In this document: positions 30,966 to 58,140 of the stretch, in pieces | Position numbering within the stretch: the stretch's first letter is position 1 | Layout of the letters: every line of letters starts with the position of its first letter | Virus record (IMG/VR): IMGVR_UViG_3300008266_000015 | DNA from: a virus | Direction: 5' to 3' (one strand) | DNA length: 64,000 nt | Translations under genes and position numbers: made by a program | The notes under the pieces: model-generated | Database searches by the model: none | Seen by the model: only the letters and a program-made list of their open reading frames with translations | What the model was told of the DNA's origin: nothing

Positions 30966-31346
30966 ATGAAAAAATCTGAACTTAAACAAATTATTAAGGA
31001 AGAAATATCTAAGGTATTAAATGAAAATAAGTATCAAGTAGTATTTATTTCTTATAGTGATGAAGAAGTTCCATATACTGAACAATATTTTGGTTCTTAT
31101 GAAGAAGCAAGTGCATGGGTAGATGGATACGAAGCATATGAATATGAAGAAGTTTGGAACTCAGCATCTCAAGATTATGAACAGGAAAAAGTTTTTAATT
31201 ACTATAACCCTCAAGATAAACAAATCTACTCAGGGTATGATATAAAACAAATGGAAAATCTTTCAGAATCTCAACAACTTCAATCATTAGAACAACAAGC
31301 TAAAGACTTTGTTTCAAAATATGGTAAAGTTAAAGTAAAAATATGA
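30966..31346 (+). CDS. MKKSEL-leader protein
   Basis: MKKSELKQIIKEEISKVLNE N-terminus shared with 56762, 57108, 57631. Confidence 0.7.
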   Translation: MKKSELKQIIKEEISKVLNENKYQVVFISYSDEEVPYTEQYFGSYEEASAWVDGYEAYEYEEVWNSASQDYEQEKVFNYYNPQDKQIYSGYDIKQMENLSESQQLQSLEQQAKDFVSKYGKVKVKI

Positions 31347-31609
31347 ACAACTTTGACCGAATTAGAGCTTTAGATAAATTACTAGAGAAAGCATTTGAAG
31401 AATTAAATAATATTAATCCTGAAGAAACAGATAAAAATGTTGCTTTGACTAACTTGATTAAAGGGTTTAAAAAGACACATGATAATATCCATTTTGATTT
31501 ACTAGATTCATATTATGAATTACAAAATCCAAATATCGAAGAAAAAATAATAGAACGCTTAGAAGGATTAGTCAAATTAATGCGTATATTTGTAGAATTT
31601 GAAAAATAA
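31343..31609 (+). CDS. Hypothetical protein
   Basis: 88-aa helical ORF, ATGA overlap. Confidence 0.55.
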   Translation: MNNFDRIRALDKLLEKAFEELNNINPEETDKNVALTNLIKGFKKTHDNIHFDLLDSYYELQNPNIEEKIIERLEGLVKLMRIFVEFEK

Positions 31610-31615
31610 ATTAAT

Positions 31616-31640
31616 AGGCTTGGATTTCCAAGCCTTTTTT
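31616..31640 (+). terminator. Intrinsic terminator overlapping a promoter upstream element
   Basis: AGGCTTGG-attt-CCAAGCCT followed by a T-tract; TTGG at 31620 is the promoter element. Confidence 0.75.
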
Positions 31641-31661
31641 CTTATATTAAAAATAAAAGTT

Positions 31662-31901
31662 ATGGCTAAAACATACATTCATGTTAACCAACATTATATA
31701 AGATCTAATAAAACAAAAGGAACCAATCTACCAGTAATTACTATTAAACAAGGTAAAACTAATACTTATTGTAATGAGGTAGAAATATTGGGCCCAAGTA
31801 AAATAATTTATGGAGGAGCAGGATGTGATGTAAAACCAATATTAAGTTGTGGAGCAAGAGTAGTTATTGAAACTGAAAGTGAAATAAGAATTATTAAATA
31901 A
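31662..31901 (+). CDS. Conserved phage hypothetical protein
   Basis: IHVNQH.IR.N, VITIK, EVEILGPS, LSCGARV; ATG at 31662 in AAGTTATG context. Confidence 0.65.
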   Translation: MAKTYIHVNQHYIRSNKTKGTNLPVITIKQGKTNTYCNEVEILGPSKIIYGGAGCDVKPILSCGARVVIETESEIRIIK

Positions 31902-31906
31902 AAGTT

Positions 31907-34489
31907 ATGTATCAATCAATTTATTATGATTTTTCTGATTACACATATCATTTGAGGGACGACAAAACAGGTTGGACCCAATTTCAATTTCAACCTACAT
32001 ACTGGAAACGTATTGATGAATGGGACGAAGGTGCTCAACCTGTATTAACAGGAGGATATGCAGTGCCCACTAAAAAATATAGTAAGGACGATCCTAATTT
32101 ATTAGAAAAGGATATCAATAAAGAATTACTTGTATTGAGGGAACTTTACTATAAATTTGATGATGTTGTTCCTTCATTCCACAATATAGTTTATCTCGAT
32201 ATCGAGATTGAAATGGGTGGAGCACTTACACCAGAATATATTAAAGCAGCCCCAATGCCTCTTACCTCCATTGCTTTAATAGATATGACCACTAAAACAA
32301 AAATATGTTTTATTGTGGATAAAAGTAAGGAAATACAAGAATACAATCAAGATGGTAAACATATTATTCCTTGTGGTTCAGAAAAAGAATTAATTAAACG
32401 ATTCCTAGATAAATTTGAGGAACTAGACCCAACCATTATTATAGGATGGAATAGTGCATATTTTGATATCCCTTACCTATACTTCAGACTTATAAAAATA
32501 GTAGGTGAAAATGAGGTAAAAAGAATGTCTCCAATTAGAAAAGTTGATTTCTCAGAATTTGCTGGTGAAATGCGGGTTAAAATTGGTGGTGTTAATCACT
32601 TAGATTATATGTTGCTTCATAAAAAATACATTATGAAGGAAGAACCCTCATATAAGTTAGGAGAAATTGGAACTAAATATGTTAAATTAGGTAAGATTGA
32701 ATATGAAGGTAATTTAAATACGTTGTTTAAAAACGATTTAAATGCGTTTATAGAGTACAATTTACGAGACGTTGAAATCATTGAAAAATTAGAAGAAAAG
32801 CTTAAATTCATTGAATTAACGGTAATGATTTCACATATCTGTAACATACCTTATGAAAGTATTTACTACAACACAGTAATGAATGAAGGTGCTATATTAA
32901 AGCACCTAAGACGTGAGGGTATTATTTCACCAAACAAACCTACTACTCACAATCCCATATTAAAAAATACTAAAGAAAGCTATGCTGGAGGATACTTACT
33001 AGAACCAATTCCAGGTCTATACTTTGACGTAATTGATTTGGATTTTACTTCTCTATATCCTTCAATCATTAAATCATTGAATTTAGGTATTGAAACATTA
33101 GTGGGTCGCATTAAAGTAGATAACAATCCAACTTATGAGCAAAACCATTCATTAGAAAAACTTAAGGAACGCGACCCCAATGAAGTCATTACTATTGAAA
33201 AGGTAAACAAAACCAATTACACACTTAGATCCGCAACCATCAAAATAGGGGATCTAGTTAATTTAATTGAGAAAAACGAATACGCAGTTGCTGCCTCAGG
33301 AGCTATGTTTAGGACTGATGAAAAAAGTGTAGTTGCTAGTATTCTAGAGGGATGGTTCGAAAAACGAGAACACTATCGTGGTTTAAAGAAAACAGCAGGT
33401 AAAGCCGAAGATTGGGCAAACTATAAATTGTACGATTTGTTCCAACATGCATTTAAAATCTTACAGAACGCAATGTACGGTACATTTGCTATTAATGGAT
33501 GGAGGTACACTGATGGGCATTTAATTTGTAGTGCTGCTATTACAAACAGCGGACAACGTTTAACTCAAGAGTCAATTGAATTTGTAAACAACAAAATCAA
33601 TACTGAAATAAAGCAAGAAAAACAAAACATATGCATTTCAGATACAGATTCACTTTATATAGTACTAGGAGACCTATTAAACCATAGATATCCAAATTGT
33701 TCACCTGAGGAAAAAAACGACAAAATACTATTGTTGGCTCAGGAAATACAAAACGAATCTAATCACTATCTAGATGAATTAAGTAAACGTTTATTCAATA
33801 CTGATTCCCACTACTTTCAATTAAAGCAAGAAGTAATTTGTGCAGGTGTACTTACAACAGGTAAACGTAGATATGCAATGTATGTTACTAATAAGGAAGG
33901 TGTTGATGTAGAGGAATTGGATATGAAAGGACTTGAATTAATGAAGTCCAATATGAATAAATTATTTAAGAAATTTGGAGAGGATTTTATTAAAAATGTA
34001 TTGTTTGGTAAACCAAAATCTGAAATAGACAATGATATAGTTGATTTCTACAAAACACTAAAAACACTAGATCCTAAAAAATTAGGTAAACCAACAGGTG
34101 TAAAACAAATCCATAACTATCACATACCAGCAATGGCTGGAGACATGTTTAGTAGATTTAGAATTAAAGCACCAGCAAACACTAAAGCCGCTGTTCGCTA
34201 TAACGATTTACTTAGGTTTAAAAAACTAGATAAAAAATATGAATCAATTATTGAAGGCGATAAAATATTTATTGTTAACTTAAAACAAAATCCATACAAT
34301 CTAGAAACAATTGGCCTACCAAATGCTCAAGTACCATTAGAAATTGAGGAATTTGTTAAAACCTATATTGATGTTGAGGAAATATTTGATTCATTGTTAG
34401 CAAATAAATTAAAGTCATTGTATCTTGATCTTTCTTGGGATTTTCCTCCCTTGAATCCAAATGTAAACAAATTCTTTGCATTTAATTAG
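31907..34489 (+). CDS. Family B DNA polymerase (T4 gp43-like)
   Basis: Exo DIEIE, WNSAYFDIPY, YNLRDV; Pol DFTSLYPS, KILQNAMYG, SDTDS, KRRY, KGLE. Confidence 0.95.
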   Translation: MYQSIYYDFSDYTYHLRDDKTGWTQFQFQPTYWKRIDEWDEGAQPVLTGGYAVPTKKYSKDDPNLLEKDINKELLVLRELYYKFDDVVPSFHNIVYLDIEIEMGGALTPEYIKAAPMPLTSIALIDMTTKTKICFIVDKSKEIQEYNQDGKHIIPCGSEKELIKRFLDKFEELDPTIIIGWNSAYFDIPYLYFRLIKIVGENEVKRMSPIRKVDFSEFAGEMRVKIGGVNHLDYMLLHKKYIMKEEPSYKLGEIGTKYVKLGKIEYEGNLNTLFKNDLNAFIEYNLRDVEIIEKLEEKLKFIELTVMISHICNIPYESIYYNTVMNEGAILKHLRREGIISPNKPTTHNPILKNTKESYAGGYLLEPIPGLYFDVIDLDFTSLYPSIIKSLNLGIETLVGRIKVDNNPTYEQNHSLEKLKERDPNEVITIEKVNKTNYTLRSATIKIGDLVNLIEKNEYAVAASGAMFRTDEKSVVASILEGWFEKREHYRGLKKTAGKAEDWANYKLYDLFQHAFKILQNAMYGTFAINGWRYTDGHLICSAAITNSGQRLTQESIEFVNNKINTEIKQEKQNICISDTDSLYIVLGDLLNHRYPNCSPEEKNDKILLLAQEIQNESNHYLDELSKRLFNTDSHYFQLKQEVICAGVLTTGKRRYAMYVTNKEGVDVEELDMKGLELMKSNMNKLFKKFGEDFIKNVLFGKPKSEIDNDIVDFYKTLKTLDPKKLGKPTGVKQIHNYHIPAMAGDMFSRFRIKAPANTKAAVRYNDLLRFKKLDKKYESIIEGDKIFIVNLKQNPYNLETIGLPNAQVPLEIEEFVKTYIDVEEIFDSLLANKLKSLYLDLSWDFPPLNPNVNKFFAFN

Positions 34490-34534
34490 GATTTCAAAAC
34501 CATCTTTTATATATTCAAACAAAATAAAAGTTAT

Positions 34535-35302
34535 ATGTTTTTAATAAATAAATTTGAACTACAAGCAGTTATTAACAAATACTATATTGGTGGTCTAATT
34601 GAAGCTGTCAAATGGGAAATCAAAGACAAACAATTAAATATCAAATTCACAGCACCAACTAAAGAAATGTTAGGTGAGGTAATACACACCAAATTCAATT
34701 TAGAGGATTCAAATATTGGTATTTCAAACACATCTCAATTAATTAAATTAATCAATATTACTAATGGGGATGTGATATTGCAATTTCTAAAATCGGGTAG
34801 AGTATTTACTAAATTAATTGTTTCTGATAACCAGTTTACCACTAACTATACATTAGCAGATATACTAACAATTAATAAATCAGGAACATATAATGGTTCT
34901 CAAGAGTTCCATTTAGAAGCATCATTAGATAAGGAAATAATTACTGCCTTAATTAAAGCTAAATCAGCACTAGATGATAGTTCAACTGTTATGTTAAAAT
35001 CAAACATTAGTTTAGATAACGAATTTCAACTTGAATTGATATTTGGGGGAGATATTGAATACTCAAATAAAGTATCTTATTATATTCCTAACATTACACA
35101 GAAAAATGTTCCTAAAGAATTCATGGGTTCATTTTCAGAATACAAAATCGGATTTAACTCTGATTTATTAAAAGACATTTTAAGCGTTAATAAAGACGCC
35201 GATGAATCTAAATTATACATTAATCTAGATGGGTTAATGAAATTAGAATTTATATCAGAAAACATTAAATCAACATATTATATAGTTCAAAAAGATGTTT
35301 AA
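34535..35302 (+). CDS. Sliding clamp (gp45/PCNA-like)
   Basis: Size, position directly after PolB, two-domain beta-rich pattern ending STYYIV. Confidence 0.65.
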   Translation: MFLINKFELQAVINKYYIGGLIEAVKWEIKDKQLNIKFTAPTKEMLGEVIHTKFNLEDSNIGISNTSQLIKLINITNGDVILQFLKSGRVFTKLIVSDNQFTTNYTLADILTINKSGTYNGSQEFHLEASLDKEIITALIKAKSALDDSSTVMLKSNISLDNEFQLELIFGGDIEYSNKVSYYIPNITQKNVPKEFMGSFSEYKIGFNSDLLKDILSVNKDADESKLYINLDGLMKLEFISENIKSTYYIVQKDV

Positions 35303-35525
35303 TATTACAAAACAAGTATTCAACCATAATGATGCGCTTTATATCCTTAAGCGACATATTAAAGAATCTACAATACCTGAAGATCAGGTTCAAAGTTACA
35401 AAAAATATTTAGGATGTGATACAGTCTTAAAAAAAGATGGTGTGTATTATTTTGTAAATAAAATAGAAGAAGCACAGATTGTTGAAGATAAATATCTTCA
35501 ACTTGAATTACCCCTAGAATTTTAG
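35295..35525 (+). CDS. Hypothetical protein
   Basis: 76-aa ORF. Confidence 0.55.
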   Translation: MFNITKQVFNHNDALYILKRHIKESTIPEDQVQSYKKYLGCDTVLKKDGVYYFVNKIEEAQIVEDKYLQLELPLEF

Positions 35526-35556
35526 TATATTTATAATAAACAAATAAAAAAGTTAT

Positions 35557-35847
35557 ATGAAATTAGAAGCAGTTTTTAACAGCATCATTGTCAAACCTCA
35601 AGAAGAGGAAGAAACCACCTACGGCTCAATAGTTGTACCTGATTTAGGAAAAGAGAAAGGTCTACGAGGTACTATTACATCTGTAGGACCAGGATACTAC
35701 TCAGCCACAGGAACATTTGTTGATTCATCTCTTAGAGTAGGTCAAAAAGTTATTTTACCTCCAATTGGTCCTGTCAAAATTGAAAACGAAGGAGAGGAAT
35801 ATTGGTCATGTAGTGAAAATCAAGTGCTAGCCATTATCACAGAGTAA
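35557..35847 (+). CDS. groES: Co-chaperonin GroES
   Basis: IIVKP, TTYGSIVVPD mobile loop, G.I.SVGPG, VGQKV, ENQVLAII. Confidence 0.9.
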   Translation: MKLEAVFNSIIVKPQEEEETTYGSIVVPDLGKEKGLRGTITSVGPGYYSATGTFVDSSLRVGQKVILPPIGPVKIENEGEEYWSCSENQVLAIITE

Positions 35848-35850
35848 ATT

Positions 35851-36030
35851 ATGGATAAGTCTAAAGAAGTAGAATTAGTATCTGCTATTCTAAAAAACTA
35901 CCTTACTGTTCAAAAACATATTGGTGAAATAGATGTACTTCCCAAAATGTACCACCCAACAGAAGATCAAGTGAATATCCCATTGTTAATGAATGGTAAA
36001 AAATTAGTTGTAGAAATTAAAACAGTTTAA
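35851..36030 (+). CDS. Small hypothetical protein between groES and groEL
   Basis: 59-aa ORF MDKSKEVELVSAILKNY...KKLVVEIKTV* filling the gap exactly. Confidence 0.55.
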   Translation: MDKSKEVELVSAILKNYLTVQKHIGEIDVLPKMYHPTEDQVNIPLLMNGKKLVVEIKTV

Positions 36031-36035
36031 AATAA

Positions 36036-37670
<1,635 letters not shown>

Positions 37671-37678
37671 TATATTAA

Positions 37679-37706
37679 TCTGGAGATCGATTTTTCGGTC
37701 TCCAGA
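37679..37706 (+). terminator. Hairpin after groEL
   Basis: TCTGGAGATCGA-tttt-TCGGTCTCCAGA (12 bp with one G-U). Confidence 0.7.
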
Positions 37707-37753
37707 ATTATTAGGATTCCAAAATCCTAAATTGTATATTAAAAATAAAAGTT

Positions 37754-38005
37754 ATGAGATTTATAGTTGGATTATTTAAATTACTGGAGGGACTAATGTT
37801 GTTCTATTTAGTTTTTTGGCTTTTAGGATGGTACATCAAAGGACATTTCGGTAAATACTTCATTTTCTTTTGGCTATATTCAGCACTCTGTGTATTTTTA
37901 TATTTTAATCATCAACAAAAATTGAAAGACTCAATCGATCCTAGATCAGGACAAGAGATATGGACTGAAAGCATGAAGGATTATGATGCGGTAAGAGGTT
38001 ATTAA
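37754..38005 (+). CDS. Small two-TM membrane protein
   Basis: Two hydrophobic helices. Confidence 0.6.
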   Translation: MRFIVGLFKLLEGLMLFYLVFWLLGWYIKGHFGKYFIFFWLYSALCVFLYFNHQQKLKDSIDPRSGQEIWTESMKDYDAVRGY

Positions 38006-38022
38006 TATTAAAAATTAAAGTT

Positions 38023-38385
38023 ATGAAATTAAAAGATAAAGTTGTTGTTAAATCTGGTGATAGATTATTTGAAGGTTTAATTGAAAAGATAGATTGGGAT
38101 ATTGACCAAAATATATATTTAGTAAATAATGAATGGTTTTGTCAATCTGAGATTACTTTAAAAAAAGGAATAGAAATAATTCAAGTAACTACCCCAAAAT
38201 TTGAATATGATGGTAAAGAATTATATGTTGAAGACAAGATGTATAAAAACCTAAATCAATTTCAAGACGATATTAATGAGTATGAACAGAAAGGTGCTAC
38301 CAAATGTTTTTTTTACACATTAAAAACAACACATGAATCAAATTTAGGCACGATATATTGGGTTAGATGTAAATTTACTAAATAA
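38023..38385 (+). CDS. Hypothetical protein
   Basis: 120-aa ORF, AAGTTATG start. Confidence 0.55.
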   Translation: MKLKDKVVVKSGDRLFEGLIEKIDWDIDQNIYLVNNEWFCQSEITLKKGIEIIQVTTPKFEYDGKELYVEDKMYKNLNQFQDDINEYEQKGATKCFFYTLKTTHESNLGTIYWVRCKFTK

Positions 38386-38401
38386 TAAAAACAAATAAGT
38401 T

Positions 38402-39322
38402 ATGTCAAAAAAGTTACACACGATTTTAAACGAGCGCTATCGTCCTGATACTCTAGAAGGATATATCTGTAAAGACGAATACAAAGCAAAATTTCAGGAG
38501 TTCATTGATCAACAAGATATTCCACACTTACTATTTGCTGGAAAACCAGGTGCAGGTAAAACAACATTAGCTAAAATATTAGTTAAAAATATTGATTGTG
38601 ACTATCTATATGTTAATGCAACTGATGAACGTTCAATGGATGTTATGCGAGATAAAGTAGGAGCATTTGCCGCCGCTGGTTCATTCAAGCCGCTTAAAAT
38701 AGTGATATTGGATGAGGCCACTCATATCCTACAAGCTTCCCAAGTTATCTTGTTAAACATGATGGAAACATATAGTTTAACTACTCGTTTTATATTAACA
38801 GGTAACTATCCAGAACGTTTAATTGAACCACTTAGAAGTAGATGTCAGGAATTTGATCTATCTCCTCCATCTAAAAAAATAGTAGCAGAACACATTGATA
38901 CTATTTTAACTACAGAAGGTATTGAACACTCAATAGAGGATGTAGTTACAATTATTAAAAAATTCTATCCTGATTTTCGCAAAATCATTAACAACTGTCA
39001 AAAATATACTGTTGATAATGTTTTAACACTTGATAAATCAATAGATTCAACTGATGACTATAAGGAAAAAGTAGTTGCTGAATTAAAAACACCTTCATCC
39101 AAATCATTTAACAACATTAGACAAATAATAGCAAATACTGATTTAGATGACTTTGGAGATCTATATAGATTTTTATATGATCAAATAGGTGAGTATGCTA
39201 AAGGAAATGAAGGTATGGTTATTATTATTTTAGAGGAATATCTGTACCATTCAACATTTCGTTTAGATAAAGAAATCAACTTAGCAGCCTGTATAAGTAA
39301 AATTTTAGAAACAATTAAATAA
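38402..39322 (+). CDS. Clamp loader ATPase subunit (gp44/RFC-like)
   Basis: ERYRP, GKPGAGKTT, NATDER, ILDEA, LRSRC, PDFRK. Confidence 0.92.
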   Translation: MSKKLHTILNERYRPDTLEGYICKDEYKAKFQEFIDQQDIPHLLFAGKPGAGKTTLAKILVKNIDCDYLYVNATDERSMDVMRDKVGAFAAAGSFKPLKIVILDEATHILQASQVILLNMMETYSLTTRFILTGNYPERLIEPLRSRCQEFDLSPPSKKIVAEHIDTILTTEGIEHSIEDVVTIIKKFYPDFRKIINNCQKYTVDNVLTLDKSIDSTDDYKEKVVAELKTPSSKSFNNIRQIIANTDLDDFGDLYRFLYDQIGEYAKGNEGMVIIILEEYLYHSTFRLDKEINLAACISKILETIK

Positions 39323-39326
39323 AATT

Positions 39327-39686
39327 ATGAAAAAAGAATTTATACCCTACGAACAAGCATTAGCTTTAAAAGAATTAGGATTTGATGAACCTTGTTTTGG
39401 TTATTTTAGTTATGAAGAATTGGTAATAGAGGGAAGATATAAAAACTCAGAACATGGACGTTCTATTTCAGCACCATTATACCAACAAGCATTTAGATGG
39501 TTTAGAGAGAAGTATCAACTTTTACATTCGATTACTGAGTATAATAAAGATGGTTCTTTAATTACTAAAATTTATCAGAATAAAATAGTAGTATTTGAAA
39601 ATATGATGAACTTTGACATTACTGAATACGAAGAAGCAGAACTTGCTTGCCTTAATAAACTAATTGAAATAACTAAAATTAAATAA
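39327..39686 (+). CDS. Phage hypothetical protein
   Basis: EFIPYEQALALKELGFDEPC ... APLYQQAFRWFREK ... YEEAELACL. Confidence 0.65.
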   Translation: MKKEFIPYEQALALKELGFDEPCFGYFSYEELVIEGRYKNSEHGRSISAPLYQQAFRWFREKYQLLHSITEYNKDGSLITKIYQNKIVVFENMMNFDITEYEEAELACLNKLIEITKIK

Positions 39687-39688
39687 AT

Positions 39689-41504: not shown

Positions 41505-41536
41505 AATCGTATATATGTATATACAAATATGTAGTT

Positions 41537-41731: not shown

Positions 41732-41750
41732 ACAATCAAAAACAGTTTTT

Positions 41751-45483: not shown

Positions 45484-45532
45484 CTAGGATTTCAAAAGAA
45501 TCTTCTGTATATTTAAAATAAAAAAACAAGTT

Positions 45533-48551: not shown

Positions 48552-48552
48552 T

Positions 48553-50192: not shown

Positions 50193-50703
50193 ATTTAGCG
50201 AAAAATTATCTGAAATAGCTATTATTCAGCCAGATGTATTCTATGATTTTAGAGGTGAATATATTGAAACATGGAATGTTGAGAACTATAAAGTATTCAA
50301 TAAAGGTAATATTGAGTTTAAACAGGATGATGTCAGTGTATCAAATAAACATACATTAAGAGGACTACATGGTGATTTTGAAACTTGGAAATTAGTTCAA
50401 TGCATTTATGGTTCTTTACTACAGGTAGTAGTAGATATGAGACCAGATAGCAAAACTTATCTTCAATATGATATGTTTTCTATTACTGATAAAAACAGGT
50501 CTCAAATTCTTATCCCACCTGGATTTGCTAATGGTCATTTGGTAATGAGTGAAATTGGAGTTTTTTCTTATAAACAATCTACATTGTATACCGGGGTAAA
50601 TGCTCAATTTACTGTAAAATGGAATGATCCTAAGATTGATATTCCTTGGCCTATTGAAAATCCTATATTATCTTCAAGAGATAAAAATGCTAAATTAATA
50701 TGA
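50182..50703 (+). CDS. rmlC: dTDP-4-dehydrorhamnose 3,5-epimerase family
   Basis: D.RGEY.E, LRGLH, KLVQC, VDMR, IPPGFANGH, WNDP..WP, SSRD. Confidence 0.88.
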   Translation: MKYKFSEKLSEIAIIQPDVFYDFRGEYIETWNVENYKVFNKGNIEFKQDDVSVSNKHTLRGLHGDFETWKLVQCIYGSLLQVVVDMRPDSKTYLQYDMFSITDKNRSQILIPPGFANGHLVMSEIGVFSYKQSTLYTGVNAQFTVKWNDPKIDIPWPIENPILSSRDKNAKLI

Positions 50704-51638
50704 AAAAAGTTCTAATCACAGGAGGAGCAGGTTACTTAGGCTCAGTTTTAACAGAGGTATTATTAAATAAAGGATACCAAGTAACAGTTTTAGATAATTT
50801 AACCTACAAACAAGTATCAGTATCTCCATTCAGCTATAATAAAAATTTTAATTTTATTTTAGGAGATGTTACTATTGAATCAACTCTAAAACCATTAGTT
50901 GAATCACATGATATTATTATTCCTTTAGCAGCTATAGTAGGGATGCCAGCTTGTAAAGCTCAACCTGAATTAACAGTAAAGGTTAATTATGAGCAAGTTA
51001 AAAATATTACTGAATGGATGACTAAGGAACAAAAGTTGATTATTCCAAACACTAATAGCCAATATGGTTCATCAACTGAAATTATTACTGAGGATAGTCC
51101 ATTTAAACCACTTTCGTTATATGCTGAAACAAAATGTGATGCTGAAAAAGCAGTATTAGATTCAGGTAATGGTATCGTATTAAGATTAGCAACAGTATTT
51201 GGTATGTCTTATAGAATGAGAATGGATTTACTAGTTAATGATTTTGTATATAAAGCGTTAACCGATGGTTATTTGGTATTGTTTGAAAGTCATTTTATTC
51301 GCAATTATATCCACATTAGAGACGTAGCTAATACATTTCTTTTCATGATTGAAAACTATAAAACATGTAACAATAATGCTTTTAATGTAGGTTTAACCTC
51401 AGCTAACTGTACTAAATTAGAATTAGTTCAGACTATCCAAAAATATGTTCCTGATTTGGTTATTGTTGAAAATAACTTCAAACAAGATTTTGATCAAAGA
51501 AACTATATGGTTTCAAATGAAAAATTAGAATCTAAAGGATGGAAACCTGAATTTAGTTTAGAAGATGGAATTCAAGAATTAATTAAGGGATATCAATTAA
51601 TTAAAAAATATAATAATAAAAACTTTACAAATCTATAA
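50700..51638 (+). CDS. NAD-dependent epimerase/dehydratase
   Basis: TGGAGYLGS, YAETK, RLATVFG. Confidence 0.88.
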   Translation: MKKVLITGGAGYLGSVLTEVLLNKGYQVTVLDNLTYKQVSVSPFSYNKNFNFILGDVTIESTLKPLVESHDIIIPLAAIVGMPACKAQPELTVKVNYEQVKNITEWMTKEQKLIIPNTNSQYGSSTEIITEDSPFKPLSLYAETKCDAEKAVLDSGNGIVLRLATVFGMSYRMRMDLLVNDFVYKALTDGYLVLFESHFIRNYIHIRDVANTFLFMIENYKTCNNNAFNVGLTSANCTKLELVQTIQKYVPDLVIVENNFKQDFDQRNYMVSNEKLESKGWKPEFSLEDGIQELIKGYQLIKKYNNKNFTNL

Positions 51639-51640
51639 AA

Positions 51641-52306
51641 ATGGAAAACCTAAAACTAAAAACCGATTTCCCAATAGCATATGAATCACCAGATCATTTA
51701 ATGCCTTGGGGTACTATGAGAGATAATTCAACCAACCCTTCCTTTATTCAGGAAGTTCAAGATTTTTTTAAATCAAATTACGATTTAGATAAAATTAAAT
51801 TTATGGACCTAGGTTGTTCAGGAGGACAATTAGCTGTAGATTTCTATAAAAAAGGAAATATAGCTGTTGGATTAGAGGGAAGCGATTATAGTGTTAAACA
51901 TCAAAGAGCTAATTGGCCCGAATATCATGATAAAATGCTATTCACTTGCGATGCATCTAAACCATATACTGTACTTCTAAATGATGAACAATATAAGTGT
52001 AATATGATAACAGCTTGGGAGGTTATTGAACATATTCATCCTGATACCTTAAATATGTTTTTTACTAATATTTCTAATCACCTAGAAAATCATGGTGTTT
52101 TTGTAGGGTCAATCTCAACAAATGTAGAAATTATTGATGGTCATGTTTTACACCAAGCCGTATTCTCAGAAGTAGACTGGTATAAGAATTTTTCAAAGTT
52201 TTTAGAAGGAACTAATCTTGTTTTATATAAATACCCATTTGAACACGTTGTAAGAGGTGATGCAGGTTCATTTCATGTCTTACTTAGAAAAGAAGTAAAT
52301 GAATAA
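51641..52306 (+). CDS. Class I SAM-dependent methyltransferase
   Basis: MDLGCSGG, GLEGS, WEVIEHI. Confidence 0.85.
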   Translation: MENLKLKTDFPIAYESPDHLMPWGTMRDNSTNPSFIQEVQDFFKSNYDLDKIKFMDLGCSGGQLAVDFYKKGNIAVGLEGSDYSVKHQRANWPEYHDKMLFTCDASKPYTVLLNDEQYKCNMITAWEVIEHIHPDTLNMFFTNISNHLENHGVFVGSISTNVEIIDGHVLHQAVFSEVDWYKNFSKFLEGTNLVLYKYPFEHVVRGDAGSFHVLLRKEVNE

Positions 52307-53180
52307 TATATTAATAACTGGAGCAACCGGTTTTGTTGGTAAACATTTATCTAAAACTTTAAAAACCCAAAATGATAATATTGTAGAATTAAATTCTAAA
52401 AATTTTAATTCAATTTGGGACTATAAAGAGAAATTTGATTATATTATCCACCTAGCTGTCAAAACAGCAGCAGGTGGATACTGCCAAAATCATCCCGGGG
52501 AACAATACCTAATCAATTCAGATATTAATAATACAATATTAAAGTATTGGAAAGAGTATCAACCACAAGCTAAAATGATTACATTTGGATCGTCATGTGG
52601 ATACGATAAAAATAATGTTAAAACTGAAGACAATTATTTAAAAGGTGAGACTGAACCAGGATATGAAGCTTATGGAGCAATAAAGCGTAATTTATTAGTT
52701 GGTTTACAATCACTAAAAAAAGAATATAATATGGAATACTCTTATTTGATTCCATCTGTATTTTATGGACCTGAATATGATTTAGATGATAAACATTTTA
52801 TATTTGATTTAATTAGAAAAATAGTAAATGCTAAAAACGGAGGAGATAAAGTAATACTTTGGGGTACTGGAGACCAAACTCGCGAGTTAATTTATATCAA
52901 TGATGCAGTTGATATTATTATTAAATCAATGTCTTGGAATAAACATACAGTTAATTTATCCTCAGGTAAAAGTCATTCAATTAAAGAATATGCTCAAATA
53001 ATTTGTGATGTTGTAGGATATGATTCTAATTTAATAGAATGGGATACTACTGCTTTTGTTGGTTCTCCAAATAAAAAATTAATCAATACTCATTTACAAG
53101 ATTATAATTTTACTTCATTAAAAGAAGGATTAATAGAAACAATTAAATATTATGAAAATAGGAGTAGTAGTAGTAAATAG
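52299..53180 (+). CDS. GDP-L-fucose synthase-like extended SDR
   Basis: TGATGFVG, GSSCGY, YGAIK, WGTGDQTRE.IY..D. Confidence 0.8.
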   Translation: MNNILITGATGFVGKHLSKTLKTQNDNIVELNSKNFNSIWDYKEKFDYIIHLAVKTAAGGYCQNHPGEQYLINSDINNTILKYWKEYQPQAKMITFGSSCGYDKNNVKTEDNYLKGETEPGYEAYGAIKRNLLVGLQSLKKEYNMEYSYLIPSVFYGPEYDLDDKHFIFDLIRKIVNAKNGGDKVILWGTGDQTRELIYINDAVDIIIKSMSWNKHTVNLSSGKSHSIKEYAQIICDVVGYDSNLIEWDTTAFVGSPNKKLINTHLQDYNFTSLKEGLIETIKYYENRSSSSK

Positions 53181-54036
53181 AAATGACGGATATAAAGATT
53201 TTGAAAGAGGAATTATCCATTTTAAATCAATGTTAGATACTTTTGATGAAGTAACTTATATTGACTGGAACTCTCCCTCAGGATCTTTCTTATGGGAAAT
53301 TAAAGATGAATTACCTAAAACAGGTAAAATCAAACACTTTATAATTCCCCCAGAAATTGTTTCCCAAATTATTGTTGATCCTAGAGCTCAACAATGTAAT
53401 GAGGGATTAAGTAGAAATATAGGAATTAGAAGAAGTGATTGTGATTGGGTAGTATCAACTAATATAGATATTATTCCTCCAAAACGTGAAGATTTAATTA
53501 AAACTATAGAAAAGTTAGATTCTAAAACTTTTTATACTATTTCAAGACGTGAAGCACCAAAGGAATTAGTATACAAATATGGTCACAAAGATTGGAAATC
53601 CCTTCAAGATGAATTATATCTTACTATACCTGAAAGGCATTTTCCAGCTATGGTAACTCCTAATGACCATTATAGTTTAATTAACTGCTGTGGAGATTTT
53701 CAATTAGCTCATAAAGATGTATGGAATACTATAAAAGGATTTGAAGAATCAATGACATACGCTTGCTTTATAGATACCAATATCCAGAAAAAAGCGGTAT
53801 TAAATAAATTCAATTTACAAGCCCTATATAATCCACCTCTATTCCATATGGAACATGGAGCATATTATACTAAAGAAGATGGTACTAGAGTATCAGATCC
53901 TAATCATAAAGGAGCATATACTGGTGATACTAAAGCATATAATGATGCCGGAAAATGGGTAGAATACTTCCAACAATCAGAAAATGATGAAGATTGGGGT
54001 CTTTCAACTATAGAAATTGAATTTGAAACAATTTAA
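53152..54036 (+). CDS. GT-A fold glycosyltransferase-like protein
   Basis: RND.Y, IDWNS, RNIGIRR, TNIDII, GDFQL, GFEE, HMEH. Confidence 0.7.
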   Translation: MKIGVVVVNRNDGYKDFERGIIHFKSMLDTFDEVTYIDWNSPSGSFLWEIKDELPKTGKIKHFIIPPEIVSQIIVDPRAQQCNEGLSRNIGIRRSDCDWVVSTNIDIIPPKREDLIKTIEKLDSKTFYTISRREAPKELVYKYGHKDWKSLQDELYLTIPERHFPAMVTPNDHYSLINCCGDFQLAHKDVWNTIKGFEESMTYACFIDTNIQKKAVLNKFNLQALYNPPLFHMEHGAYYTKEDGTRVSDPNHKGAYTGDTKAYNDAGKWVEYFQQSENDEDWGLSTIEIEFETI

Positions 54037-54084
54037 AAATTAGGATTTCAAAATCTTTAATTGTATATTTAAATAAAAAAGAAT

Positions 54085-54252
54085 ATGTTAAACTTTATAC
54101 GATATTTTTATTACTCAAAAGTTGATTCAACTAAAGAGCCAATAGATAGAATAGTAGCAATAGATTACGATACGGCTCTCGAATACTTCGCAGAACGTAA
54201 ACAAATGAACCCATATGAATTTTTGAAAATATATGAAATTAAATCTGAATAA
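54085..54252 (+). CDS. Small hypothetical protein
   Basis: 55-aa ORF MLNFIRYFYYSKVDS...YEIKSE* directly after the promoter at 54041. Confidence 0.55.
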   Translation: MLNFIRYFYYSKVDSTKEPIDRIVAIDYDTALEYFAERKQMNPYEFLKIYEIKSE

Positions 54253-54643
54253 TTTTGGGAAACGATTAAAACTAATCAAACGTACCAAAAAATCAAAAGA
54301 AATCTCTGAATCAGATTTATTTGTTGAGTCAATTGGAACGATGGATCATTGTTGGGATCGTTCTAATAAGCTTTATGGAACGTTTGGATTAAATACTCTA
54401 GAGTATGAGGAAAGCTATTATCAAATTATTGAAAATCTCCTATTAATCAAATATGGATATTGGAAAACAGAAATTATATTATGGTATGTGTTTGGGAGAA
54501 AAGATGAAGAGGAAAATGTCCATCCACTTATAGTACAACATGTTGGAAAAGAAGAAGAAGAGGTATTTATTACCACACCACTTGAGTTGTGGAATTTTTT
54601 AGTTAAAGTAGAAGAACAAAAAGATAAAGATGAAAATGAATAA
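54233..54643 (+). CDS. Hypothetical protein
   Basis: 136-aa ORF. Confidence 0.6.
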   Translation: MKLNLNNFGKRLKLIKRTKKSKEISESDLFVESIGTMDHCWDRSNKLYGTFGLNTLEYEESYYQIIENLLLIKYGYWKTEIILWYVFGRKDEEENVHPLIVQHVGKEEEEVFITTPLELWNFLVKVEEQKDKDENE

Positions 54644-54929
54644 GTTATGTATAGGGTGTGGAGAACCAATTCATCCAAAACGTTTGGAGATACTCCCAAA
54701 CGCAATCAGATGTGTTGCTTGTTCAACCACTGGTAAAAAAGCAGCAATTACAGTTACTAAAGGTGAGGGAGACCATACCTATAACGAAACTGTTATTATG
54801 GATAGAGAAGAATTTAATAAAATCCAGGAAATGGAATTTAAAATCCATGGTAAACGTAAAGACTCTATCTCACATCCCGATGAGGATGCAAGTGAAGAAG
54901 CAACAGATACAACCCCAATTGCAGAATAA
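54630..54929 (+). CDS. DksA/TraR-type C4 zinc-finger protein
   Basis: CIGCGEPIHPKRLEILPNAIRCVAC. Confidence 0.85.
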   Translation: MKMNKLCIGCGEPIHPKRLEILPNAIRCVACSTTGKKAAITVTKGEGDHTYNETVIMDREEFNKIQEMEFKIHGKRKDSISHPDEDASEEATDTTPIAE

Positions 54930-55579
54930 TGGGTAAGAGAAAAGATTTAACCAAAGAACAAATATTGTTGGCGATGCGCAACACGAAATCGAATCGTGCC
55001 GCAGCACGTTACCTAAACTGTTCATACATTCACTACAAAACGTGGGCTAAACGCTACCATGAATTTGAAGGTGGTAGATCGTTGTTTGAAGTGCACTTGA
55101 ACCAACGAGGAGTAGGTATTCCTAAATTCTTAGGTGGAGTACGTGGACGTAAAAGTAAATGGGATATACTAGATGTCATTGAAGGTAGAATATCAGTAAA
55201 CCACTTCAAACCAGGAGAAATTAAAGATAAAATGGTTGATGCTGGACTTTTAAAAGAGGAATGTGATATGTGTGGATTTCAAGAACGCAGAGTAAGAGAT
55301 TATAAAATACCACTTATATTGAATTTTAGAGACAATAACTCTAACCACTACAATTTTGGAAATGTTCGTTTTTTATGTTATAATTGTTATTTTCTAAACA
55401 TTGGAAATATCTTTAACAATCAAGATATTAAACAATTAGAAACACACACTCCAACACGTGGAACTAGTGACGAGATAGATTTTCAATTAGATGATTATCA
55501 ACTAAAACAACTAGAGAAACTAGGATTGTTTCAGCCTCCAAAACCAGATGATGGAAGTGAGTTTATTTCAAGAATTTGA
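54929..55579 (+). CDS. HTH + degenerate HNH zinc-finger protein
   Basis: N-terminal SNRAAARYLNCSY HTH; CDMCG ... LNFRDNNSNHYNFGNVRFLCYNCY. Confidence 0.65.
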   Translation: MGKRKDLTKEQILLAMRNTKSNRAAARYLNCSYIHYKTWAKRYHEFEGGRSLFEVHLNQRGVGIPKFLGGVRGRKSKWDILDVIEGRISVNHFKPGEIKDKMVDAGLLKEECDMCGFQERRVRDYKIPLILNFRDNNSNHYNFGNVRFLCYNCYFLNIGNIFNNQDIKQLETHTPTRGTSDEIDFQLDDYQLKQLEKLGLFQPPKPDDGSEFISRI

Positions 55580-55596
55580 AATATTTATAAACAAAA

Positions 55597-56133
55597 ATGA
55601 TTAAATTGAAAGAGATATTAGACGAAATCATATTGGACGATTTGATAAAAAGACCAGATATGATATTAATATCTGAGGAGGTTTCTTCATTTCAAGAATT
55701 AGCAGATCCTGATTTTTCATATAAATACAATGAGATAAAACCAAATGTTTGGAGATTCAATGATAGATTTGGAAATACACTTGAGGTTCAATTCCTCCCA
55801 AATGTTAAAGAATTTGAATCTTATTACATAATGCAAAATACCAAGGGGAAAGAAGTAAAGATATTTGATTATGATACTAATAAAGACTACCTAGATCCCA
55901 CATCATTTCAGGGTGGTTCAGATGAGCATCGTTCAGATACAATATGTAAAATACTATTAGATGAGGTTCTTCCTGAATATCTTCTAAATGAAAAACCTTC
56001 AATTGTGAAACTTCATCCTTTAAATGATTATAGATATAAAATATTTATGAAATGTGCCGAGGTATGTAAAGAAAGACATCCAAATATTGAAATTAAACCT
56101 CTAGGAAGAGATATTTACCTAATAAATAAATAA
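55597..56133 (+). CDS. MIKL-leader protein (paralog of 43189)
   Basis: MIKLKEILDE leader; ATATTTAT at 55581. Confidence 0.6.
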   Translation: MIKLKEILDEIILDDLIKRPDMILISEEVSSFQELADPDFSYKYNEIKPNVWRFNDRFGNTLEVQFLPNVKEFESYYIMQNTKGKEVKIFDYDTNKDYLDPTSFQGGSDEHRSDTICKILLDEVLPEYLLNEKPSIVKLHPLNDYRYKIFMKCAEVCKERHPNIEIKPLGRDIYLINK

Positions 56134-56135
56134 AA

Positions 56136-56294
56136 ATGGCTAAGCATAAAAAACATGACTCTTTAGTTAAAGACTATGAAGCACAAAAAGCCAAACATTT
56201 AGAAAAACTTGCTTCCCAAATGTTGAAGCAAGATGAAAAAATGCAAAAACTAAAAGAAAAAAATATTAATAACGATTTCCTAAAACTATTTTAA
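56136..56294 (+). CDS. Small basic helical protein
   Basis: 52-aa ORF MAKHKKHDSLVKDYE...FLKLF*. Confidence 0.55.
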   Translation: MAKHKKHDSLVKDYEAQKAKHLEKLASQMLKQDEKMQKLKEKNINNDFLKLF

Positions 56295-56298
56295 AAAT

Positions 56299-56604
56299 AT
56301 GAAACCAACAATATTTAAAGTAAACACACTTGAGGAATTTCAGGAAATGGTTGATAAAAAGGACTTTAGTATATCTAAAGCGGTAGTAGATTCAATTTTA
56401 GGGAACTTAAAAACGCGTAAAAAGAATGTTCATATGCTTTCTGTAAAATGTATTGAGGAAAATACTATATTTGATATAACGCTTGAAAAAGTTAATTTTG
56501 CGGATACTTTAAAACAAAACTTAACATATTTTGAAAAACATGAAATGTTTGAAGAATGCGTTAAGATAAATGATGCAATTGCACAGTTAAGTAAGAGTAA
56601 ATAG
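56299..56604 (+). CDS. Hypothetical protein with UVR-like C-terminal helix
   Basis: YFEKHEMFEECVKINDAI. Confidence 0.55.
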   Translation: MKPTIFKVNTLEEFQEMVDKKDFSISKAVVDSILGNLKTRKKNVHMLSVKCIEENTIFDITLEKVNFADTLKQNLTYFEKHEMFEECVKINDAIAQLSKSK

Positions 56605-56624
56605 CTCGCCATATTTATTATAAA

Positions 56625-56765
56625 ATGGCAAAGACAAAAGAATCCTCTTCAAAACTATTAAGCAAAACAAAAATTAAACGTCCTGGTGTACATAGCAAGA
56701 AAAAAACCAGTTCTCTAAAATCAAGCAAAAATTATAAAAAATTGTATAACGCTCAAGGAAAATGA
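56625..56765 (+). CDS. Small very basic protein
   Basis: MAKTKESSSKTIKQNKIKRPGVHSKKKTSSLKSSKNYKKLYNAQGK*; ATATTTAT at 56611; ATGA overlap with 56762. Confidence 0.65.
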   Translation: MAKTKESSSKLLSKTKIKRPGVHSKKKTSSLKSSKNYKKLYNAQGK

Positions 56766-56803
56766 AAAAATCGGAATTGAAACAAATCATTAAGGAGGAA
56801 ATC
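56762..56803 (+). repeat. Dispersed ~42-bp coding repeat (leader) at 30966, 56762, 57108, 57631; partial at 58878
   Basis: atgaaaaaatcNgaaYtNMaacaRMtYatYaaRgaRgaaat; differences mostly synonymous. Confidence 0.8.
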
Positions 56804-57106
56804 ACTAAAGCACTAACAGAAATAGAAAATAGTGAAGACTATTCAGATTTAGTTTATAAAGATATGTGGGAGGATTTACTTACATGGGCTAAATCTAATA
56901 GAACTTCTACAAGAAAGGATGCCAAATATCCAAGTTTAAAAAAACAAGAAGAATATTTATTCTCTATTGCACCAACGTATGGTGTTGATGTTAACATGTT
57001 AAAAAAAGCACTAAAACAATACGATGCAATCCATAACAGAACATACGGTATGATTCCTGGTGGACTAACGTGGCAAGAATGGGTTGATGCTAAAATAAGC
57101 AAATAA
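56762..57106 (+). CDS. MKKSEL-leader protein
   Basis: MKKSELKQIIKEEITKALTE. Confidence 0.7.
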   Translation: MKKSELKQIIKEEITKALTEIENSEDYSDLVYKDMWEDLLTWAKSNRTSTRKDAKYPSLKKQEEYLFSIAPTYGVDVNMLKKALKQYDAIHNRTYGMIPGGLTWQEWVDAKISK

Positions 57107-57107
57107 A

Positions 57108-57629
57108 ATGAAAAAATCTGAACTGAAACAGATCATTAAGGAGGAAATTGAAAAAGCACTATCTAGTACCCCATCAATTGAATTAAATACTTCTTTTCTT
57201 CAATCCCAAGATGATTTTGAAAGGGGAGGAGATACAGGATATACGGTATGGAAACCTGAATTTAAAAATGGTTTAAAAGCCAACCAACAAAATTTTAAAT
57301 CCTCAGGTAAACCAGCTATCCCAGTTCAAAGAGTAAAATTTGAAATGATAGATACTATGAGTGATAGAGGGGAAGATATATCTTACATTAATGTTAAGTT
57401 TAAAAAACCATTAAATGAAATCTTTATTGATTTAGATGATTACGATCCTGAAGAATTTGGTGTAGAAGATTTTGAGAAATTTGATGAAATAGTTGATTCT
57501 AAACAAAACCCAACATTACAAGATGTTTCTGGATTAATTGATTTGAAAAATAAAAATCTCAGTTTTTATGGTTGTTATGTTTTAGATATCAAACCAAACG
57601 AGATAGTTAAAATTACAAAAGAAAATTAA
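57108..57629 (+). CDS. MKKSEL-leader protein
   Basis: MKKSELKQIIKEEIEKALS. Confidence 0.7.
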   Translation: MKKSELKQIIKEEIEKALSSTPSIELNTSFLQSQDDFERGGDTGYTVWKPEFKNGLKANQQNFKSSGKPAIPVQRVKFEMIDTMSDRGEDISYINVKFKKPLNEIFIDLDDYDPEEFGVEDFEKFDEIVDSKQNPTLQDVSGLIDLKNKNLSFYGCYVLDIKPNEIVKITKEN

Positions 57630-57630
57630 A

Positions 57631-58140
57631 ATGAAAAAATCTGAACTACAACAACTTATCAAAGAGGAAATATTAGCTGAGGTTAAAAAAGATAAATCTG
57701 GTTTACCATTCGCTCTAGCAGCAAATATCGAGAAATACGGTTCACCACGCACCCCAAAAGGAGCTAAGCCAACTGACTTTACTAAAAAACAAGAAAAAAG
57801 TGTAAAGAAAACAGCTGAAAAACTTAAGAAATCTATTTCCGAAAACAAAGACAACTACATGTTTTTCCAAAACCTTAAGACAATTAAAGATGCTGTAGAT
57901 GAAATGTTATCACTTGACCCATCAATGGTGGATATAATTTTATCTGATGGACACGACTGGGCTAACGACCATATTGCAACATCAAAAGACGATGTTGAAG
58001 AGGTTAAAAATTTCCTCACATCTAAAAGAGTCGTAGCAGAAAAACTTAAAGGCGGACAAAAGAAACTAGACGTGGCTGAACCAAAAGGGAAAATCACGGC
58101 TGCGGATTTTAAGGCTCTGCAAGCAATGAAGAAAAAATAG
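57631..58140 (+). CDS. MKKSEL-leader protein, modular
   Basis: MKKSELQQLIKEEILAE; C-terminal QKKLDVAEPKGKITAADF EF-hand-like motif. Confidence 0.7.
   Translation: MKKSELQQLIKEEILAEVKKDKSGLPFALAANIEKYGSPRTPKGAKPTDFTKKQEKSVKKTAEKLKKSISENKDNYMFFQNLKTIKDAVDEMLSLDPSMVDIILSDGHDWANDHIATSKDDVEEVKNFLTSKRVVAEKLKGGQKKLDVAEPKGKITAADFKALQAMKKK

Follow-up and report, generated by a model that had tools for sequence, protein, structure and literature searches.

Short N-terminal leaders shared by unrelated proteins of T4-like phages: candidate capsid-targeting propeptides

Leader genes of the window

The stretch of viral DNA analyzed here, IMG/VR record IMGVR_UViG_3300008266_000015 (64,000 nucleotides [nt]; its whole length is called the window), contained 93 called genes, all on the + strand, with a GC content of ~30%. 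Eight of these genes encoded proteins in which one of two short leaders, or the remnant of one, was joined to an otherwise unrelated body, termed the cargo below. An initial annotation had read a common start, MKKSEL(K/Q)Q(I/L)IKEEI, in the open reading frames (ORFs) at 30966, 56762, 57108, and 57631; this class-1 leader was confirmed, the first 14 residues being common to the four proteins. The remnant noted inside a fifth ORF was located at residues 42 to 53 of the product of 58755-59267, and the MI(K/L)LxxLLxE starts at 11059, 29832, and 55597, termed class 2, were verified by direct reading. The genes were as follows.

11059-11556, + strand: o11059, class-2 leader protein of 165 amino acids (aa), leader MIKLVDLLKE
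29832-30215, + strand: o29832, class-2-like leader protein, 127 aa, leader MILLIDLLRE
30966-31346, + strand: o30966, class-1 leader protein, 126 aa, leader residues 1-20 MKKSELKQIIKEEISKVLNE, nt 30966-31025
55597-56133, + strand: o55597, class-2 leader protein, 178 aa, leader MIKLKEILDE
56625-56765, + strand: conserved and very basic protein of 46 aa, heading the leader-gene operon, no Pfam family
56762-57106, + strand: o56762, class-1 leader protein, 114 aa, leader MKKSELKQIIKEEITKALTE
57108-57629, + strand: o57108, class-1 leader protein, 173 aa, leader MKKSELKQIIKEEIEKALSS
57631-58140, + strand: o57631, class-1 leader protein, 169 aa, a chain of modules
58755-59267, + strand: o58755, 170 aa, degenerate internal leader FIKEEIQNVLSE at residues 42-53, nt 58878-58913

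The sequences behind the leaders were unrelated, as claimed at the outset: the best pairwise BLASTP match between the bodies had an E value of 0.04, and neither Pfam nor PHROGs gave a family for any of the eight cargos. The body of o30966 was acidic and Tyr rich, belonged to no known family, and had an ortholog in locus L020 of a relative; orthologs of o57108 were present in loci L050 and L111, and o56762 had no homolog in two relatives used throughout, the complete 159,934-bp genome G005 and the cultured Flavobacterium phage vB_FspM_immuto (immuto below). In o57631, the leader (to ILAE-17) was followed by a basic module, KSGLPFALAAN...KLKKSISE-71, and then by a helical core beginning NYMFFQNL. 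The degenerate leader of o58755 corresponded to the second half of the class-1 leader and was preceded by a 41-aa N-terminal extension; the G005 gene at the corresponding position begins MKKSELKELVKEQLFKALLE. The start of o11059 overlapped the end of gene 10604-11062. Similarly, the end of the 46-aa basic protein gene overlapped the start of o56762 by 4 nt, and o56762, o57108, and o57631 formed a tight operon (gaps of -4, 1, and 1 nt) behind it. A 46-aa Lys/Ser-rich protein headed the leader-gene operon in the window, in G005, and in two further relatives (G024 and G025); this protein could be a DNA-condensing internal peptide. No further leader copy was detected in the six frames of the window with a regular expression and a leader hidden Markov model (HMM).

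Similarity between the leader DNAs began at the ATG and stopped ~45 nt downstream, and the upstream DNA was not shared. Over the first 15 codons, each pair of leaders differed by 4 to 5 synonymous and 1 to 3 non-synonymous codons, so that the earlier remark that the differences were mostly synonymous held, as did the remark that most leaders end in L-x-E, which applied to seven of the eight (VLNE, ALTE, ILAE, VLSE, LLKE, LLRE, and ILDE), o57108 being the exception.

Distribution of the class-1 and class-2 leaders

The IMG/VR counts for both classes, and the numbers of cargo clusters built on them, are lower bounds. A degenerate back-translated pattern for ELKQ(I/L/M)IKEEI matched at least 118 IMG/VR stretches, and in nearly all of the matches listed the motif lay four residues past the start Met. 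Among the matches listed there were 98 distinct leaders, in which M1 was kept in 88, L18 in 76, and E20 in 75; further positions not fixed by the pattern (K2, K3, S4, K16, and V/I17) were also kept, and conservation dropped abruptly after E20. Because MKKS ahead of the motif and x-K-(V/I)-L-x-E behind it were kept and conservation then ended, the unit comprises 20 residues ending in L-x-E. The 84 full-length class-1 proteins among the matches listed fell into 67 unrelated cargo clusters. The scan of relatives with a leader HMM or pattern that had been proposed as a check returned an N-terminal leader on more than 100 unrelated proteins.

The class-2 pattern, MIKLxxLLKE, matched at least 120 viral stretches in IMG/VR. 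Since this pattern is short and matches cellular DNA too, the raw cellular count (likewise a lower bound) is uninformative, and viral and cellular matches were compared as gene starts. True ORF starts (first ATG, ORF of ≥50 aa) made up 86% of the viral matches, with D or N at residue 6 in 67%, versus 8% of the cellular matches, in which residue 6 showed no preference. The class-1 pattern gave five matches in 596 Gb of cellular genomes; four were internal in high-GC genes and are chance matches, and one was N-terminal. To judge from these scans, both leaders, hereafter also called tags, are widespread in uncultured T4-like phages and essentially absent from cellular genomes. A tblastn search of isolate phages with a 21-aa leader gave no match, the query probably being too short or filtered, and a literature search for the leader string found no mention of it.

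Three occurrences were singled out. The N-terminal cellular match, a canonical leader gene, lay on a 114,848-bp contig with 31% GC (L334; CBFHZN010000003.1) that had been binned into a Microbacteriaceae (actinobacterial) metagenome-assembled genome and is probably a mis-binned phage contig. In a 299-kb IMG/VR genome with at least six leader genes (G001), a 78-aa protein with a canonical class-1 leader (L123:1874-2110) was encoded directly downstream of a 570-aa protein containing an S77 domain. In the pelagiphage HTVC008M (L333, 106562-107224), a homolog of the Zeta-like kinase cargo discussed below starts MIPFILKE↓G (the arrow marks the position after the Glu, here and below); this short peptide ending in L-x-E suggests that similar tagging may extend to Kyanoviridae.

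Cleavage motif, prohead protease, and termini of head core proteins

In phage T4, the prohead protease gp21 cuts after L/I-x-E, and the capsid-targeting sequence (CTS) is the first 10 residues of the internal protein IPIII; its targeting depends on residues 4 and 7, and its processing depends on residues 8 and 10 (PMC9026906). The class-2 tags fit this rule (L4, L/I7, L8, and E10), and the class-1 tag has the same spacing twice, shifted (L6, I9, I10, and E12; I14, V17, L18, and E20). Thus, the 10-residue MIKLxDLLKE has one copy of the spacing hydrophobic-x-x-hydrophobic-hydrophobic-x-Glu, and the 20-residue MKKSELKQIIKEEIxKVLxE has two. With its end within the first 22 residues, this spacing was ~5-fold enriched at N termini relative to internal sequence windows (p=1e-10 in G005, p=2e-4 in the window under study, and p=2.5e-7 in immuto). 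With the T4 CTS, MKTYQEFIAE, the leaders have only this pattern in common and, beyond E10, no residue identity; therefore, they are classed as a variant that would work like the T4 system and not as the same tag. In their general build they are like the CTS of T4 IPI, IPII, IPIII, and Alt, which is likewise a short N-terminal tag on unrelated proteins with an L/I-x-E end.

Peptidase_S77, the family of gp21, was encoded by each of the nine complete genomes with a tag and by 6 of 14 fragments. This co-occurrence lacks a true negative control, since most genomes of this size class are those of T4-like phages. The head module of G005 had the order portal, three unknown proteins, protease, scaffold, and capsid protein, with the portal, protease, and major capsid protein assigned by PHROGs. 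In the nine genomes, the N terminus of the protease reads MK(Q/S)(I/L)L(I/V)E↓T; T4 gp21 starts MNEPQLLIE↓T, and T4 and this clade are alike in having an S77 protease whose own N terminus is of the LLIE↓T form. In addition, the protein encoded just ahead of the protease begins MKTLQxQYxLIKE↓GKG, and a small core protein has ..KRLKE↓(M/I)SATG, both in the nine genomes. The scaffolds of the sub-clade start MA(T/N)NR(D/N)LLKE↓AIADAK, which resembles the class-2 tag MIKLxDLLKE. A corresponding likeness of tag and scaffold N terminus exists in T4, in which gp22, MLKEQLIAE↓A, resembles the CTS, MKTYQEFIAE↓A (..QLIAE↓A vs ..EFIAE↓A).

A third tag and the scaffold tail

A further motif, MQKLAGI, found outside the window, occurred in two settings. 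As a leader, it was present on 23 small proteins in the form MKKQILSEEFxRMQKLAGI(I/L)(T/S)E↓, with the cleavage motif in 23 of 23. As a tail, it formed the extreme C terminus of 83 proteins of 220 to 590 aa, which end ...I(S/T)E↓xxxxxxRMQKLAGIIK, and [LIVM]xE stood just ahead of the tail in 77 of the 83, most often seven residues before MQK. These tailed proteins, larger than the leader-bearing ones, are the scaffolds, encoded directly downstream of the protease; its GELDHP motif was found upstream in 34 of the 47 testable cases, and the position next to the protease was confirmed in two relative loci (L120 and L121), in G005, and for immuto gp067. Since the same peptide stands in both settings with the protease motif as its border, the third tag is read as a copy of the scaffold terminal peptide. 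G005 has an unusual scaffold tail (..RMRELAFGKK) and a cargo protein starting MNNQFENMQKLAFGKVLIKE↓, both containing LAFGK, which hints, at the level of these two peptides, that scaffold tail and cargo tag may co-vary.

Immuto gp067 (NC_055915.1; L579:4995-6236) is annotated as a "DNA polymerase phi-like protein"; lying between the protease and the major capsid protein and having matching termini, it can be assigned as the prohead scaffold. A possible fourth leader class, MENFDLKKFLVENKLT.NSK.L.E, was seen on at least four immuto proteins (among them L580:1803-2318, L585:3806-4354, and L585:17631-18931) and also in L193; one immuto protein of this putative class carries the same cargo as o11059.

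Short peptides that decide whether a protein is enclosed are familiar from other shells: P22-type scaffolds have C-terminal coat-binding peptides and encapsulin cargos have C-terminal loading peptides, and neither is removed by a protease. By analogy, the class-3 tag, being a scaffold tail, may likewise be a short terminal peptide that decides enclosure in an HK97-fold shell; the tags described here differ in being N-terminal and in having a putative cut site.

Exchange of leaders and turnover of the loci

Pooling of classes 1 and 2 gave 197 proteins in at least 118 cargo clusters. Three cargo families stood behind both tags, namely an ADP-ribosyltransferase (ART)-like family, the o57631 family, and a third family of unknown function. 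A fourth case of exchange involved the o11059 cargo and an immuto protein, which shared 51% identity; the leader of the immuto protein is another peptide, of 24 residues (MENFDLKKFLVENRLT..LINE), and the alignment began at the two L-x-E motifs. Furthermore, MIKLASLLKE preceded the o57631 core in L275, and a 642-kb megaphage had this core with no such leader.

The leader genes are accessory and their locus is hyperplastic. The gene for o30966 is an insertion upstream of the polymerase gene that is absent at that slot in most relatives, and the slot after the 46-aa basic protein held three, two, one, or no leader genes in four relatives. The T-even ip loci, as cited in PMC3012670, are polymorphic and hold diverse internal proteins that share the CTS alone. 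As far as that citation describes them, they are like the loci studied here in being hyperplastic, with different cargos behind the same leader in close relatives; the present loci differ in being scattered, in lying within otherwise early-type regions, and in using several leader classes.

Such turnover raises the alternative that the leader is kept as a patch of homology for recombination, or as an A-rich start that boosts translation, with no function of the peptide. The T-even ip genes are thought to shuffle via their conserved ends. This precedent, the hyperplastic loci (sometimes beside homing endonucleases), and the favorable initiation context ATG AAA AAA all fit a role at the DNA level, whereas the mostly synonymous changes that keep the peptide, the retrieval of copies with a degenerate back-translated pattern and not a fixed DNA word, the retention of 20 residues including the distal L-x-E, and the carriage of the same cargo by different tags all speak for selection on the peptide. 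A function at the DNA level only is therefore considered very unlikely; recombination may well take place at the tags as a side effect.

Module chains and cargo families

The o57631 family comprised 951 homologs. In its shortest members, the 20-residue leader was joined straight to the NYMFFQNL core, and in longer members basic and other modules were inserted. In 120 members, the junctions carried [LIVM]xE before the core in 112 of 119, before the basic module in 94 of 94, and after the basic module in 100 of 100, and the middle residue (P2) varied freely. In the giant phages phiKZ, 201phi2-1, and SPN3US, gp21-like proteases cut many ejection or inner-body proteins at S/A-x-E; cleavage after Glu at several sites per protein resembles the module chains of the o57631 family, and the differences are that P3 is S or A instead of L or I and that one portable common N-terminal tag is not reported there (PMC9026906).

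Nearly all cargos lacked a Pfam family. The families found among class-2 cargos were Zeta_toxin (11 proteins; best E=1e-17), ART-PolyVal (2 proteins; E=1e-27), AAA_33, NT5C, RNase_T, GNAT, and hydrolases; a Tox-ART-HYD1 match in L103 reached 21.2 bits against a Pfam cutoff of 25 and is a hint only. One cargo type is an ART, as is T4 Alt. Iyer et al. 2017 (PMC5512222) predicted that the ARTs of polyvalent proteins, like T4 Alt, enter the virion and are injected, and they noted phage zeta-toxin-like kinases in fusion with MuF. Those polyvalent and MuF-fused effectors belong to the same families (polyvalent-type ART and zeta-toxin-like kinase) and are likewise predicted to be virion borne and early acting, with delivery by MuF/portal-associated fusion or as giant multidomain proteins (PMC5512222); here, in contrast, a putatively removable tag of 10 to 24 residues is carried by single-domain proteins. 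MuF was not among the families listed by the Pfam scans of 196 tagged proteins, most of which were single-domain proteins.

The cargos bear on two further alternatives. In the first, tagged proteins enter the prohead as parts of the assembly or core, acting in size determination, DNA condensation, or filling, and are degraded or stay inert instead of being injected as effectors. T4 gp22, gp67, and gp68 bear similar propeptides and are cut up and expelled (PMC9026906), such propeptides also occur on small proteins from the head module of this clade (the p173 family and immuto gp072), and a Lys-rich module in the o57631 family and a 46-aa basic protein at the head of the operon would suit such a role. 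Assembly factors would not be expected to be accessory and to differ between close relatives as the leader genes do, or to comprise at least 118 unrelated cargo clusters, and Zeta-toxin-like kinases and ADP-ribosyltransferases would find no substrate inside a capsid; hence, this alternative is judged unlikely. In the second, a modifying enzyme (for example, a radical-SAM/SPASM maturase) recognizes the tag, in the manner of ribosomally synthesized and post-translationally modified peptides. A QueE-like gene is indeed present in the window at 24278-25105, but the cargos are folded domains of 50 to 400 aa and not short core peptides, and of all the readings considered this one is the most improbable. 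The search for a maturase was negative: SPASM was found in none of five complete tag-bearing genomes (positive control, 8 of 14 reference genomes), and Radical_SAM was found in two of the five, as a QueE-sized protein beside QueC and QueD.

Promoter-like motifs upstream of leader genes

The initial annotation had placed most of the leader genes behind a sequence motif. This was borne out in the window: [AT]TATTTAT occurred within 60 nt upstream of 4 of the 8 leader genes versus 8 of the 85 other genes (p=0.009), and 3 more, those at 56762, 57108, and 57631, lay in the operon behind the motif-bearing gene 56625, so that 7 of the 8 stood behind the motif directly or via the operon, o11059 being without it. 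The extended form, ATATTTATWA, had 12 sites in the window, of which 11 were on the coding strand, versus 4.6 expected, and preceded the tape-measure gene, gene 2624, the SSB gene, two homing endonuclease genes, the GroES gene, and leader genes or their operon; in G005 it preceded head and tail genes. It is a putative late promoter. The sites at leader genes were as follows.

29820-29829: ATATTTATTA, putative late-promoter motif, upstream of o29832
30950-30959, + strand: TTATTTATAA, variant putative late-promoter motif, its end 6 nt ahead of o30966
55581-55590: ATATTTATAA, putative late-promoter motif, upstream of o55597
56611-56620, + strand: ATATTTATTA, putative late-promoter motif, heading the operon 56625-58140
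58729-58738, + strand: ATATTTATAA, putative late-promoter motif, its end 16 nt ahead of o58755

A second repeated intergenic element, TAGGAWTHC..TATATTTAA, with TATATATTTA or TGTATATTAAA ~15 nt later, had 14 sites versus 4.3 expected. It preceded non-leader genes between the leader genes, being found upstream of replication-type and small early-type genes, and is probably an early or middle promoter distinct from ATATTTATWA. Its sites included the following.

9268-9306, 20206-20244, 25127-25165, 34487-34525, and 37712-37750: TAGGAWTHC element
45485-45523, 54041-54079, 58146, and 60113: TAGGAWTHC element, continued

The motifs also bear on the possibility that the tag is a binding helix for a partner other than the capsid, such as a chaperone, an adaptor for degradation or timing, or a multi-enzyme or replication compartment. 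Strict conservation across divergent phages implies some conserved partner, some cargos act in nucleotide metabolism (NT5C, RNase T, and P-loop kinases), the phage encodes its own GroEL and GroES, and o11059 is not behind the late motif. This possibility would nevertheless leave unexplained why L/I-x-E is the exact limit of conservation in each class of tag, why an L/I-x-E-type motif is kept at module junctions, why the tags match scaffold termini flanked by the same motif, and why the promoter motif of structural genes precedes most tagged genes. We consider it improbable.

The phage, its relatives, and other features of the window

Gene content included a tape-measure protein (179-2596), a gp32-type SSB, GroES and GroEL, QueC and QueD, thymidylate synthase, and a gp43-type DNA polymerase (31907-34489) ~30% identical to cyanomyovirus gp43; on this sequence evidence, the source is a distant T4-like phage. 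In total, 78 IMG/VR loci had polymerases 54 to 93% identical to that of the window. The polymerase of G005 was 83% identical, and G005 matched 48 of the 93 window proteins with a median identity of 61%. Immuto, whose host is Flavobacterium sp. LMO8, matched 38 of the 93 with a median identity of 44%, and all tag classes were present in it. Its candidate tagged ORFs (NC_055915) are 24569-24994 (tag MIKLIDLLTE); 25061-25456 and 111675-112139 (..AGIITE); 112261-112575 (MRLLELLRE); and 102294-102869, 113188-113946, and 1803-2318 (..LINE). The hosts of the tag-bearing phages are probably Bacteroidota.

Several neighboring features were recorded. The 7-deazaguanine pathway occupied 21791-25105, with QueC at 21791-22741, QueD/PTPS at 22987-23454, and the QueE-like gene at 24278-25105, which had no Pfam match at 1e-3; a GIY-YIG homing endonuclease gene (23599-24285), behind a late-type motif, interrupted these genes. 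7-Deazaguanine DNA is known from the cultured relative immuto (PMC10516641). GroES and GroEL (35557-37670) directly followed an ATATTTATAA motif, a position that, by analogy with T4 gp31, fits a role in the folding of late capsid proteins. The thymidylate synthase (28227-29627) has 466 aa, and its 265-position Pfam profile stretches over residues 6 to 366, which implies ~100 inserted residues and a 100-aa C-terminal extension. Two 65-aa paralogs (MKYRLGFLFHRIIYDNW.. and MKYKLRTYYTNNIRGW..) were encoded at 27018-27215 and 27735-27932, with two small genes between them, one of which has a lipoprotein-like signal peptide. At the 3' end (61726-63659), two proteins had signal peptides at their N termini, and one of these proteins had a PKD domain at its C terminus; they may form a Bacteroidota-style secreted or surface module.

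Interpretation

It is likely, as far as sequence comparison can tell, that the shared N termini are T4-type capsid-targeting propeptides that mimic the termini of scaffold or core proteins and that the prohead protease cuts off. The anatomy of the tags, their distribution and exchangeability, their co-occurrence with the protease, and their resemblance to core termini are observations; binding, cleavage, packaging, and ejection of the tagged proteins are what we infer from them. In the proposed mechanism, the tag would form a short amphipathic helix resembling the phage's own scaffold or core termini, so that a tagged protein would co-assemble into the prohead core. The gp21-type (S77) protease would then cut after the Glu of L/I-x-Glu and free the cargo inside the head, and the cargo would leave the head with the DNA at infection. 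The tags would be interchangeable modules borne by many accessory genes with rapid turnover, which would be expressed from promoters of the structural-gene type, and some cargos would be chains of modules linked at the same cutting motif. The modular head-loading tag suggested by the initial annotation thus gains support from the recurrence of the leaders, their L-x-E end, the S77 protease in 9 of 9 genomes, the matching scaffold and core termini, and the upstream motif.

Several points weigh against this reading, besides the lack of a negative control for the protease co-occurrence. The window contains no head genes; hence, the link to a protease rests on relatives such as G005, whose polymerase is 83% identical. 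A virion proteome for the clade or for immuto was looked for and none was found. The leader of o57108 lacks E20, having ALSS at positions 17 to 20 and keeping only IKE at positions 10 to 12, and an AlphaFold2 model of o57631, in which residues 3 to 20 are helical, has low confidence (pLDDT 64, pTM 0.28). The class-1 tag, the most prominent one in the window, is matched only loosely by termini of core proteins (MKTLQxQYxLIKE↓GKG and immuto gp072, MKKSQIVKAVQEVLEE↓M). A (D/N)LLKE start does not hold for all scaffolds, since the largest subgroup reads DLFKQ, and the resemblance of the class-2 tag to the scaffold N terminus is therefore specific to this sub-clade. [LIVM]xE at module junctions could partly have been inherited along with the modules, and the class-2 cargos include ordinary enzymes of nucleotide metabolism, NT5C and RNase T, which do not obviously require packaging. 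Finally, no [AT]TATTTAT-type motif lies upstream of o11059, the association of motif and leader in G005 was not significant (p=0.22 per gene and p=0.26 by crude operons), and ATATTTATWA is assigned as a putative late promoter solely from the genes behind it.

The concept of the T4 CTS and internal-protein system is already known (PMC9026906, PMC3012670); what is new are the tags, their number, and the breadth of their cargos. Compared with T4, which has three internal proteins and Alt, there are at least 118 cargo clusters here, and the interchangeable tag classes number at least three and probably four, with lengths of 10, 20, ~22, and ~24 residues; one tag copies the C-terminal tail of the scaffold, some cargos are multi-module chains, the host is probably a bacteroidote, and the tags are known from sequence alone.

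Significance for the phage lineage

With capsid-targeting propeptides as the preferred reading, a broader proposal is made more tentatively and at somewhat less than even confidence: that a large marine and freshwater T4-like lineage, probably with Bacteroidota hosts, loads cargo by scaffold mimicry, using at least three to four interchangeable tags that copy scaffold or core terminal peptides, including the tail RMQKLAGII, and that are bounded by a protease site, so that any tagged protein or chain would be enclosed, released, and injected. If head loading by the tags is real, the match between tag and scaffold terminus suggests how a CTS works and why cleavage frees the cargo. Phage immuto is cultured and has all tag classes, which makes the question open to direct testing. 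Given head loading, the tags would also be candidates for packaging foreign proteins in Bacteroidota phages. T4 IPI and Alt are examples of injected anti-restriction and host-takeover factors; if the proposal is true, the tags would be an address label that picks hundreds of unknown injected effector families straight from metagenomes, a filter needing sequence only for proteins injected ahead of phage gene expression, and one that would serve an abundant uncultured lineage in which at least 118 cargo clusters consist nearly entirely of orphan genes.

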